Assembly (NCBI GenBank): GCA_010015805.1
Contig: ML978121.1
Span: 248,001 to 312,000 of the forward strand
Direction: 5' to 3'
Origin: Rhizodiscina lignyota
Taxonomy: Eukaryota
DNA length: 64,000 nucleotides
This document shows positions 41,722 to 45,560 of the stretch, one piece after another. Each line of letters starts with the position of its first letter. Position 1 is the stretch's first letter. Below the pieces are notes generated by a model that made no database searches, was not told where the DNA came from, and worked only from the letters and a program-made list of their open reading frames with translations. The translations under genes and the position numbers were made by a program.

Positions 41722-43426
41722 ATGGTGCCCCCAGCACTCGACAATGACGGCAATGCGCGACGCCTGCTCTTCTCCGACGACACAATCCACGATCGCAGTT
41801 CAGAGTCGAGCGACCTCGACATTGACGAGGAGAATTTCCTCGAGTCGCACCCCGAGAATGTGTACAAACGTGCACCCCGGCAAAGGAGACGAGAGAGATG
41901 GAAACTGGGCAGAGGCAATTGGACGGTGCAATGTCCATCGATAAATCGCAAACAGAAGCTGCTCATCTTCTCGCTCACCCTACTCTTATTACTGGTGTCC
42001 TGCGCCGCAGTGTATAGTAAAAAGCATGGCATCCCGCAGTTGAAGAAGGAGAAGGAGAAGGACAAAAAACCTCCGCCGCCGCCCAAACCGACGTTTTGCT
42101 CCAGCTGGCCAGTAGATGAGAAGCGCGATGTTGCATCGCGAGATGTGAGCGCCCAAATACACGTCGAGCGACCGCAGCTCGAGACAAGGTCGACGTGGAA
42201 GAAGCCGACCGGCTTCAAGATTGTCGCGACCGTATTTTGTGAGTTTGCGCATTCACCCAATCGCGGCCTCGGGATTTCTAACAACATGACGTAGATGGAC
42301 GACGAAGGAACGTCGACGTCCTCGACTGCTATCTGCAGAAAAACCTTGCTCGTAATGGAGGATATCTCGATTCCGTTCATTTTATGGTCCATACGTCTGA
42401 AGAGGCGGACCGAGCGTGGATCGAGAAGAAGGCAAGGGAGACGGAGGGCTACGAGTATATCGACCTGAAAGACTGCACGCAGCTTCCCTACGGATGCATG
42501 TGGGACTTTATCGCAGAAACTGACACTCTTTACATTAAAATCGACGACGATATTGTACGTTGTGCCTCCCTGCAATCGTGGCGCAACAGTAATGCTGACC
42601 CGCCTGACAGGTTTATATCCACGAGGACGCCATCCCACACCTCGTACAAACCCGCCTTGAACAACCAAACGCCTTTGCCGTCTCCGCCAACCTGGTCAAC
42701 TCCCCGCTAACCGGCTGGCTGCATTTCCACTTTGGCGCCATCCATCCATACCTCCCCGATCCCGCAAAGACACCTTACTACCCCCCAACCACTGAGTGGC
42801 GCGTATCCAAACTTCCCCTCTACAAAGGCGAAAAGTCCGTCGACTTGGACGCTGACCGCATGGAGCCGCCCTTCCCCGGACACCGCTGGCTCCCTCTCAG
42901 CCACAACGACACCAACATGGACAACATGATGACGCCGATGGGCAAGGTAAACAACTGGGGCAGCACACGCTTCGGCCTCGCCCTCCACGGCTGGGGCGTC
43001 GCCGCGCAGCAGCACTACTCGCTCTTCCAGAACGTCGAGGAGGACACGGTCTGGAAGTACCACTTCGGCAGCCGCCAGGGCAACAGCGACAGCCTGTGGA
43101 ACATGCAGTACACCCGCTACAACCTCAATTTCATCGCCATCTGGGGCAAGGACGTGCGCGCCAATCTCCCCATCGAAGACGACGACGAGCAGGGCATTGG
43201 CGTCACGCTGCCGAAGAAGTTGGGCAGGCCCTTTTTCGTGGATACGAAGGCGGTCGTGGCACATCTGCACTTCGGCCCGCAGACGATGAATATGCTGAGG
43301 ACGGACATCCTGGATCGATATCGGAGCCTGGCGAATGAGAGGGTTTGCGCCAAGGACAACCAAAAAATCCCGATCGATGCGAGATGTCCGTGGGTCATGG
43401 GCATGGATATGGAAGACTTCATGTGA
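41722..43426 (+). CDS. Type II membrane protein, putative GT-A-fold glycosyltransferase of unknown specificity; exons 41722-42238, 42295-42554, 42611-43426
   Basis: ATG in CACCATGG context, one TM helix 'LLIFSLTLLLLLVSCAAVY', then 'VFYGRRRNVDVLDCYLQKNL..NGGYLD', DxD-like 'YIKIDDDIVYI' and 'VAAQQHYSLFQNVE'. Two canonical introns, in frame. Confidence 0.78.
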
Positions 43427-44187
43427 GACGCACAACGCGTCGGTGTTCCGATCGCCGGATGCCGCAATGTCTAAAGCCTTTTTTTTTATGCGTTCATGAG
43501 TCAAGGGAGATGACATGGGGGACTTATACCCAATGGTGGCAACGCGATTCCCACAGTTCTGCTTCTTTGGTTCGAAATCTCCTGTTGTATTAGCGCCACT
43601 CTGCATGGACACGCGGCGTTCTCTTTCTTTCGATTAGCCTTTGGTTTGGTGGCACACTCTACTGTAACACTTGTAGCAGCATTCTGGAGCGAGGGCGTTT
43701 TCCTTTTTTCCGTCTCCGTCAAAACCGGAGATTGCATTCCAGGAGGGGATGATGACAAGTGATGATATAGCATTTTGGAGCTTCGGGGGGCTGCTCTGAA
43801 TGATTGTACACGGTGGTTGCATGCGAATCTTCCCATCTGCATGGACTTTGCGTTTCCTAGATTTCGCATTCCTGCGCTTGAGCGTGGTGATTTGTATTGT
43901 ATGGATTTTCTTTAACTACTTTTCAATTTGAGTTCTCTAGATGTCGAAAGCACACACTTCAATCCACCAGACGCAGAACCTCTCTAGATTTTAGACTTCG
44001 CCGCGATCCCGATCTTAAGATGCCGTTCTTTCCTGTCTATTCTATATGCCAGGCATCAGCCCTGCCTTTTCAGAACGCAGCAGAAGCGAAAACCCTCTCT
44101 CTACCTTCAACTCCTTGCTCGAAATTCAAGGCGAGGTGGCCCCAGGCTCTAAGGCATCTGTGGCGCGCTTCAAGGGGCCATGCAACC

Positions 44188-45560
44188 TTACCTCGAGCGG
44201 CCGTATGTGGGAGCGGGCTTGGGCTTGTTCTGCAGCACGCCCTCGATCTCCTCCATCACCTCGGGCGTCAACTTGGGGATCAGCTCGAGGGCCTTGCAGT
44301 TGTCGTGGATCTGCTCGACTTTGGTTGCGCCAAGGATGACCTGTTGTGCTGTCATTAGTAACCGCGTCTACGTAATTCATGAGAATGTCTGGACGAAAAG
44401 AAAGAAAAATAGCTCCAAGACGTCGAACGGTGTGAGGTTGAAATAGAAGCCGAGGGGTGCGAGAGCGTGGAGGAAGGTATTTGGAATCACAGAATAAGCT
44501 AAAAACTCACAGTTGAAACGTTCGGATTCGCAACGCACCACGCCAATGAGAGCTGGCTCACGGAGCCGCCCAAGCGTTCGGCAATAGTAGTCAACTTCCG
44601 GACTTTCTCAATCTTCGATTGGCCCACTTCGGATTGGAGCGAGGCGATCGTGTCGTTGAACATACTGCCATGGTTCGCGAAGCGGCTGCCCTCTGGGATG
44701 CCCTGGTTGTATTTGCCGGTCAAAAGGCCTGATGCAAGCGGTGACCAGATGGTCGTTCCGTACTCGTACTTCTTGAACACCGGGTCGTACTCCACCTCGA
44801 ACCTGTCGCGGTGGAAGGCGTTGTACTGAGGCTGTTCGGCGATGGGAGCGATGAGGTTGTACTTTTCAGCGATGAGCGTCGCCTCTGTGATCTGCAGTGC
44901 CGACCACTCGGACGTGCCCCAGTAGTATGCGAGGTTGAGGTTGCGGATGACCTGCGTGAAACCTTCGACAATCTCGCGCATCGGTGTAGCAACGTCCGGC
45001 CTGTGAGCGAATACAACATCGACGTACGGCTGTTGCAGTCTCTCCAAGGAGCTCTTCAGCCCCTCAACAACGTGCTTCCTCGAAAGGCCCCTCGTGTTCG
45101 GCTCCTTGCGCCCCGTGCCGAAGAATACCTTGGTGGTGAGCACGTACTCGTCCCTGGGCCAATTGAGCTCCTTGAGAGCATTGCCCATCTCGATTTCCGA
45201 CTGGCCAGCGGCGTACGTCTCCGCGGTATCGAAGAAGTTGATGCCATTGTCCCATGCAGCTTGCAGGCACTCCTTCACGATGTTGCCCTTCTGCGTTCCG
45301 CCGTACGTGAGCCAGCCGCCCAGTGAGAGGACCGACACCTTGAGTCCAGTGGGGCCCAGGTGGCGGAAGACCATGTTCTTCGGGTCGTACATCGACCTGA
45401 CTGCCATCTTTGCGGTATTGTCGTCTCTGCGCGAGCTCGAAGAATGGAATTGGGCAGTGTGAGAACAAGACAGACGGGCCAAAGCCAATTGACGAAAACG
45501 GAGCTTCGTAAAGGGAGCTGGAGGAGAGTGACGAAGGAATTGCGTCGCGACGCGAGACAT
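44188..45560 (-). CDS. Aldo-keto reductase, voltage-gated K+ channel beta-subunit-like (AKR6-like); exons 45560 (or 45407)-44511 and 44340-44188; optional extra exon 44041-43984
   Basis: '[23 protein letters not shown]', '[14 protein letters not shown]', 'TTKVFFG', '[10 protein letters not shown]', '[11 protein letters not shown]', '[13 protein letters not shown]'. Intron 44510-44341 joins '[16 protein letters not shown]'. Confidence 0.93.

Follow-up and report, generated by a model that had tools for sequence, protein, structure and literature searches.

A stop codon within a splice donor and a probable hidden peroxisomal form of a Kv-beta-like reductase in Rhizodiscina lignyota

Does the annotated stop codon of an aldo-keto reductase (AKR) gene in the fungus Rhizodiscina lignyota (Dothideomycetes, order Aulographales) always end the protein, or does it belong to an intron whose removal would send the enzyme to the peroxisome? 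The gene lies on the minus strand of a 64,000-nucleotide (nt) stretch of contig ML978121.1 (positions 248,001 to 312,000 of the forward strand, GenBank assembly GCA_010015805.1), here called the window, with its first letter as position 1. A preliminary description, made from the letters of the window, had noted that the stop sits inside a splice donor and that splicing there leads to a C-terminal Ser-Lys-Ile (SKI), a type 1 peroxisomal targeting signal (PTS1). The observation is confirmed: the stop lies inside the donor, and an exon ending in SKI follows in frame. The proposal drawn from it, a splice-controlled PTS1 isoform of a Kv-beta-like reductase, gains support from conservation in orthologues and from relatives that carry the predicted junction. 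We consider it probable that this AKR6 gene has an optional last intron and gives both a cytosolic and a PTS1-tailed peroxisomal isoform.

A stop codon that is also a splice donor

In the annotated model the gene has two exons and a product of 349 amino acids (aa) named 'Aldo/keto reductase'. The translation of exon 1 is 100% identical to the annotated R. lignyota protein (P0003, 349 aa), and the translations of exons 1 and 2 sum to the annotated 349 aa. The features of the gene, with its proposed terminal intron, are as follows.

44511..45407, minus strand: exon 1, 299 aa, starting MAVRS (from translation and Pfam PF00248)
44341..44510, minus strand: intron 1, constitutive, phase 0, with GTGAGT ... 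TACTAAT ... CAG read in the sequence
44192..44340, minus strand: exon 2 as far as the alternative donor, VILGATK...TYGRS and then AG, the first two bases of the codon for the last Arg
44188..44190, minus strand: TAA stop of the short isoform (349 aa, without PTS1), equal to bases 2-4 of the donor
44042..44191, minus strand: proposed optional terminal intron, 150 nt, with donor GTAAGG, branch CTGAT at 44059-44055 and acceptor TAG at 44044-44042
43987..44041, minus strand: predicted terminal mini-exon, one base finishing Arg349 plus 18 codons, SKI end
43984..43986, minus strand: TAG stop of the predicted long isoform (367 aa), read in the sequence
44033..44035, minus strand: second possible acceptor, CAG, in frame; the intron would be 159 nt and the tail 3 residues shorter, with SKI kept

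The coding sequence ends TAC GGC CGC TCG AGG TAA, with AGG at 44193-44191 and TAA at 44190-44188. The last codon and the stop spell AG/GTAAGG (the slash marks the splice junction); the exon would end at 44192 and the donor GTAAGG would occupy 44191-44186. The string GCTGAT at 44060-44055 holds CTGAT, which matches the branch consensus CTRAY and places the branch A 14 nt before the acceptor G, and the acceptor TAG is the earliest AG past this branch. After splicing, AG joined to A (44041) retains Arg349, AGG becoming AGA, and codons 44040-43987 translate to IDRKERHLKIGIAAKSKI, 18 residues with a Ser-Lys-Ile end, followed by TAG. This tripeptide fits the pattern [SAC][KRH][LMI], and Lys stands at -4 and -10 within the last 12 residues of the tail. 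The unspliced 349-aa form ends GRSR and has no PTS1. The preliminary description had the donor, branch, acceptor and stop exact, base for base; its statements that splicing drops the stop and reads in frame to SKI, and that a CAG 9 nt further on keeps the frame (44035-33, intron 159 nt), are borne out by the translation. An intermediate TAG (44039-37, intron 155 nt) would shift the frame. Readthrough of the TAA in frame meets the next stop after five codons, so readthrough cannot yield the SKI tail.

By eye, the terminal intron is GC-rich and without A-rich signals, and the A-rich segment at 43925-43890 would fit 3'-end formation beyond the mini-exon. Alignment of the terminal intron with the DNA of the intron at the orthologous locus L009, over a short range of the latter, revealed no meaningful conservation past the donor; lack of sequence conservation inside an intron is expected.

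The family of the enzyme is recognizable from its closest matches. Residues 27-298 of exon 1 match PF00248 (Aldo_ket_red) with E 1.7e-45 and a score of 155.8 bits (cut-off 24). Over residues 12-343 the nearest solved structures are Kv-beta-2 (3lut, E 7.5e-100) and AKR6D1 (8hw0, E 1e-95); all Kv-beta-2 chains fall between E 7.5e-100 and 3e-98, and the next families (AKR14 and others) reach only about 1e-45. Judged by these sequence matches, the reductase is a member of the AKR6 (Kv-beta-like) branch of the aldo-keto reductase superfamily, and 3lut and 8hw0 as top matches vindicate its earlier naming as Kv-beta-like. Residues D60, Y65, K93 and H135 are invariant in an alignment of 36 fungal orthologues, and going by known AKR motifs we take them to be the catalytic Asp-Tyr-Lys-His tetrad.

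The way in which one gene could serve two compartments can be put as follows. If the intron is retained, the ribosome would stop at the TAA and release a 349-aa enzyme without targeting signal, which would stay in the cytosol. Excision of the 150-nt intron (44191-44042) would take the stop away, keep Arg349 and add 18 residues, giving a 367-aa enzyme that ends Ser-Lys-Ile; Pex5 would read this PTS1 and bring part of the enzyme into peroxisomes. The need to spell a stop codon makes the donor suboptimal, and a suboptimal donor together with a weak SKI would fit a minor peroxisomal fraction. For R. lignyota we infer the splicing, the isoform ratio and the Pex5-dependent import.

Donor and tail in related fungi

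Orthologous loci were collected by scanning metagenome records with the alignment of 36 orthologues; the best 80 of 217 confirmed stretches were used, 78 of them anchored on exon 2. Codon choice was read in 54 non-duplicate loci whose G-R-x-R end could be aligned; tails were sought in 35 non-duplicate loci in which the protein stops exactly at G-R-x-R and the sequence continues downstream for at least 150 nt. A tail qualified if it was 4-30 aa long, in frame, ended in [SAC][KRH][LMI] and was reached through a YAG acceptor, which was searched for 35-300 nt downstream.

A donor at the stop codon is the rule in this set, since AG/GT is present at the stop in 29 of the 35 loci. The last Arg codon is AGG in 37 of the 54 loci (AGA 8, CGG 7, CGT 1, CGC 1); elsewhere AGG accounts for 8.5% of the remaining Arg codons in 11 complete open reading frames (ORFs) and 10% in the region of the last 50 codons. 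The stop after AGG is TGA (13), TAG (11) or TAA (10) and is followed by G in 29 of 34 loci; the sites therefore read AG/GTGAG, AG/GTAGG or AG/GTAAG. Canonical PTS1 tails, ending AKL, SKL, SRL, SKI or SKM, follow in 15 of the 29 donor-bearing loci, and none of the six loci without AG/GT has a qualifying tail. The check named in the preliminary description, that orthologues conserve the donor at the stop and a terminal exon ending in a PTS1, thus gives a strongly positive answer. AAG acceptors give AKL or ARL in two donor-bearing loci (L034 and L061), and near-canonical ends (TKL, NKL, GKL, ANL, PKL, SRF) occur in further ones.

In the loci that lack the donor (L025, L027, L028, L049, L051 and L053) the last Arg codon is CGG or CGC and no PTS1 tail is seen. 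A clade whose protein ends ten residues earlier (...NKP; L029-L033 and L040-L043) showed no PTS1 exon on scanning, even with GT after the stop. Because the donor-less loci and this clade are without a tail, the hidden tail was lost or never gained in parts of the family.

How often such a tail arises by chance was estimated with 2000 first-order Markov shuffles of the 420 nt downstream of the window stop, of which 2.85% produce a qualifying PTS1 tail. The window taken singly is not significant, because a reader scanning about 20 genes could meet a 2.85% event by luck; the arrangement is judged significant because of the comparative data from relatives. Across the 29 donor-bearing loci the shuffles predict 0.61 tails against 15 observed, and none of 200000 simulated sets reached 15. 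In real sequence, of the 76 other AGGTRRG sites that occur in these loci on either strand, only one carries a qualifying tail. The idea that an ordinary 3' untranslated region has a donor-like stop context and an SKI frame aligned by luck draws on the 2.85% figure and the many genes scanned, but it is very improbable given the 15 tails of 29, the single control site, the strong enrichment of AGG at the last codon and the spliced forms that exist in relatives.

The tails share a length of about 10-13 aa, a richness in Lys, Arg and Pro and a PTS1 end, and they cannot be aligned between clades. Shared length, composition and tripeptide form the pattern that would be expected under selection for a targeting signal, and simple unconstrained inheritance is argued against because the tails have diverged while keeping the signal.

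Annotated and predicted proteins carry the same mark. A first protein search gave the best 120 homologues (79-100% identity), nearly all of which stop at the conserved G-R-x-R; short PTS1-like tails are found in seven. Those of the Diplodia seriata, D. intermedia and D. corticola models end AKL, that of Phyllosticta citriasiana ends SKL and that of P. capitalensis PRL; the remaining two, P0031 (SKL) and P0034 (ANL), come from mRNA-sized contigs. Both forms are present for D. seriata, one tailed (P0006, 355 aa) and one untailed (P0005, 349 aa). With the tail in only 7 of the best 120 homologue models, annotation pipelines systematically shorten this gene. Short additions that are not PTS1-like were also seen in the first search. 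Three are unrelated ends of 6 aa; in seven others, P0025, P0041, P0051, P0055, P0061, P0076 and P0100, the protein ends ...RERL or ...RQRL, one Leu past the usual end.

A second search, directed at the C-terminal end, listed 120 proteins, 94 of them new, and one of the new ones is tailed (P0123). Its 11-aa tail runs from I-E-K to AKL, and the 12 residues at the end of its core are identical to those of the window protein. Many metagenome ORFs are exactly 207 aa long and start at the conserved Met143, apparently a restart of the gene caller after an upstream intron; P0123 (218 aa) is such a 207-aa ORF extended by its 11-aa tail with the PTS1. The contig that bears it may be genomic and lack the terminal intron, which would make the PTS1 constitutive in that species.

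The window tail opens I-D-R, to be compared with I-E-K in P0123 (AKL end) and V-D-K in L009, the closest cDNA-like relative (SKI end), and this likeness favours the TAG acceptor at 44042. SKI also terminates the predicted tails of L009 and of locus L014, which are about 7 residues shorter than the window tail.

Molecules with and without the intron

The predicted junction is found in contiguous ORFs of relatives: contigs L003 and L004, proteins P0031, P0034 and P0123, and the Diplodia and Phyllosticta models. In L003 and L004, GRKR (...GGT CGC AAG AGA) is directly followed by a 12-codon tail ending SRL or SKL. A relative, L005, shows the unspliced state, with ...GGT CGC AAG AG/GTGAGC, a 120-nt intron to AATAG and an exon that matches the tail of L003 and L004. 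The change from AGG to AGA in L003 and L004 is as predicted, because splicing joins AG to A.

Neither L003-L005 nor 24 other contigs contain an intron in the coding sequence, and coding-sequence introns are present in every full-match locus from a contig longer than 6 kb. The intron-free contigs stem largely from few sample series. From the absent introns, the contig size and the sample series, we infer that they are transcript assemblies. Among cDNA-like contigs without other coding-sequence introns, 13 retain AG/GT at the stop and two are spliced, and 12 of the 13 have a canonical or near-canonical tail within reach. If these contigs are cDNA, the ratio of 13 retained to two removed therefore fits a major short and a minor long form. 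L003-L005 also carry, about 0.5 kb downstream, a convergent gene for a 248-aa HAD-like hydrolase (about 1560-2450, 82-98% identity); sought as a genomic comparator for these contigs, it was found in none of the genomic loci nor in the window.

RNA from the fungus itself is represented, at most, by one contig.

43928..44079, no strand assigned: stretch identical to a 154-nt contig of a soil RNA library, 100%, 0 gaps, unspliced across the acceptor

Only one RNA-type sequencing run (0.06 share of words) contained any of the stretch, and the other matching run is probably the source assembly; neither showed a junction at the site, and for run X1, uncovered parts of the stretch carry no information. 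The soil contig extends 56 nt beyond the stop of the tail. Polyadenylation upstream of about 44050, which the preliminary description had set against the long form, is not what we find, as the RNA-library contig (RNA or DNA) covers 44079-43928; it is weak evidence against polyadenylation ahead of the mini-exon, and is silent on the spliced form. For the coding parts of the gene, the soil library has matches only in contigs of other fungi, with 1-15 differences, and the simplest reading of the identical contig is low-coverage sampling of unspliced R. lignyota transcript or DNA. An Rfam scan of 43600-44400 gave only a chance-level match to a small nucleolar RNA (E 5.2), outside the feature, so the contig is not explained by a known small RNA. 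A joint from 44331 to 45211 was considered as a splice of the gene and rejected: its ends are AA..CG, and the contig that shows it, with 15 differences, belongs to another organism.

Several points weigh against an optional intron with two isoforms. The orthologous loci are mutually related, so their counts are not independent events. The device is not universal in the family, and 6 of the 29 donor-bearing loci (L044, L045, L047, L054, L055 and L072) show no PTS1-like tail. The arrangement in L003 and L004 may reflect loss of the intron, making the PTS1 constitutive in those species. In the window, the annotated model terminates at the TAA, and the only identical RNA-library contig is unspliced at the acceptor and may be DNA carry-over. 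RNA sequencing of R. lignyota was looked for among sequencing runs, and none was found. Any phase-2 GTAAG or GTGAG donor gives an in-frame stop if retained, so the stop itself is no evidence of selection for the short isoform. Finally, the window tail has 18 aa, compared with about 10-13 in relatives, and contains two acidic residues; with a long, partly acidic tail and a weak SKI, the signal could be decaying in the Rhizodiscina lineage.

The last point leads to the first of two further explanations, in which the family has the device and the Rhizodiscina tail has drifted until it no longer gives splicing or import. The long and acidic tail with its weak tripeptide would suit such a relic, as would the missing RNA-sequencing run and the six tail-less donor loci, which indicate that loss occurs. 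But the donor, the CTRAY branch, the first-AG acceptor, the frame and the canonical-pattern tripeptide are all intact, the I-D-R start is still like those of P0123 and L009, the tails of L009 and L014 also end SKI, and Lys is kept at -4; we regard a relic as unlikely. 

The second holds that the terminal intron is constitutive, that the 349-aa model is an annotation error over a tiny last exon, and that the enzyme is purely peroxisomal. Very short terminal exons are often overlooked by gene predictors, a tail is seen in only 7 of 120 homologue models, and a stop that every phase-2 GTRAG donor makes automatically need not be selected. Against these stand the 13 cDNA-like contigs that keep AG/GT and the sequence after it, compared with two spliced, the many 349-350 aa homologues that derive from mRNA-sized contigs (1.2-1.6 kb), the window-identical contig that is unspliced at the acceptor, and donors that are suboptimal at position +6. 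A purely peroxisomal enzyme is accordingly quite unlikely in our judgment, and the optional intron with a cytosolic and a peroxisomal isoform is the reading that we retain.

Hidden targeting signals and the surroundings of the gene

Cryptic PTS1 isoforms of fungal glycolytic enzymes were reportedly described by Freitag, Ast and Bolker in 2012 (Nature 485:522). The reductase resembles these enzymes in that one gene would give a major cytosolic and a minor C-terminally extended form, with the PTS1 as sole new feature, in that the standard gene model does not show the signal, and in the conservation of the arrangement across fungi. It differs from the cases of GAPDH, PGK and TPI in its family, AKR6, a Kv-beta-like reductase dependent on reduced nicotinamide adenine dinucleotide phosphate (NADPH), and from the glycolytic cases in that the 5' splice site includes the stop codon and the exon that is added encodes little more than the signal. 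For the glycolytic enzymes, hidden PTS1 forms through alternative splicing or stop-codon readthrough are established (PMC4207609).

Two proteins of Ustilago maydis, Rpe1 and Art1 (um03914, 'related to lactaldehyde reductase'), acquire a PTS1 when the stop is read through in the context UGA CU, and the Art1 readthrough tail, ending ERL as do the ...RERL homologue models, was reported to send GFP to peroxisomes despite a 'not targeted' predictor score (PMC4207609). Art1 is an aldehyde reductase of unknown role with a hidden peroxisomal form, as the window gene would be, but it uses readthrough and not splicing and is not an AKR6 protein (PMC4207609). This likeness suggests that carbonyl reduction or redox balance is needed in fungal peroxisomes. 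The lactaldehyde-reductase-like annotation of Art1 presumably denotes a different fold family from AKR.

Among solved structures, Kv-beta-2 (AKR6A; PDB 3lut, 2a79, 1exb and others) and the bacterial AKR6D1 (8hw0) are the closest relatives; the likeness to Kv-beta-2 implies no potassium-channel role for the fungal reductase. The fungal His135 presumably corresponds to Asn in Kv-beta-2. The mammalian Kv-beta proteins are not known to have a PTS1 or such a terminal intron.

The tripeptide itself has a precedent in the Hansenula polymorpha catalase, which has the same C-terminal SKI, a weak but working Pex5 ligand; according to PMC9305541 the catalase SKI peptide binds PEX5 at 8-fold lower affinity than the SKL version. 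This agrees with the mention of that catalase in the preliminary description as an example of a functional SKI. The catalase signal is constitutive and not splice-dependent, and the two proteins are unrelated. No description of a peroxisomal or alternatively spliced fungal Kv-beta-like reductase was found in the full-text literature, a coverage that leaves out most subscription journals and some supplements, and the main text of a Histoplasma peroxisomal proteome paper contains neither 'aldo' nor 'potassium'.

With the peroxisomal isoform probable, a conserved NADPH-dependent aldehyde/ketone reductase would join the likely peroxisome matrix proteome of filamentous ascomycetes, in which NADPH supply and use, like the clearance of reactive carbonyls, have been poorly mapped, and the hidden-PTS1 strategy of glycolytic enzymes would reach the Kv-beta-like AKR family. 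The signature, a last codon AGG, a stop within GTRRG and a PTS1-ending mini-exon, can be used to search fungal genomes for cryptic peroxisomal proteins.

The gene also has a second in-frame ATG, upstream of the annotated start.

45408..45560, minus strand: possible N-terminal extension, in-frame ATG plus 51 codons (ORF 44499..45560), Arg/Ser/Leu-rich

Asp and Glu are absent from the extension up to its last six residues (RRDDNTAK), and from its composition it is a possible mitochondrial presequence, used from the upstream start. Extensions of this kind are seen in 14 of 120 homologue models and at loci L009, L021, L051, L055 and L067, and P. capitalensis P0044 has both the N-terminal extension and the C-terminal tail. 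The upstream ATG suggests that there may be a third, mitochondrial isoform. We advance only tentatively, and with some doubt, the idea that in many Pezizomycotina one AKR6 gene serves mitochondria (upstream start), cytosol (standard form) and peroxisomes (stop-codon intron). Were it true, NADPH-dependent carbonyl reduction would be needed in all three compartments, and in most fungal genomes standard annotation would miss two isoforms out of three.

On the downstream side, a 193-aa ORF on the plus strand (42845-43426) converges on the reductase gene and ends about 560 nt past the stop of the mini-exon. The convergent downstream ORFs, this one included, gave no Pfam match; together with an upstream ORF (42384-42710), ORF 42845-43426 may form part of a multi-exon gene.

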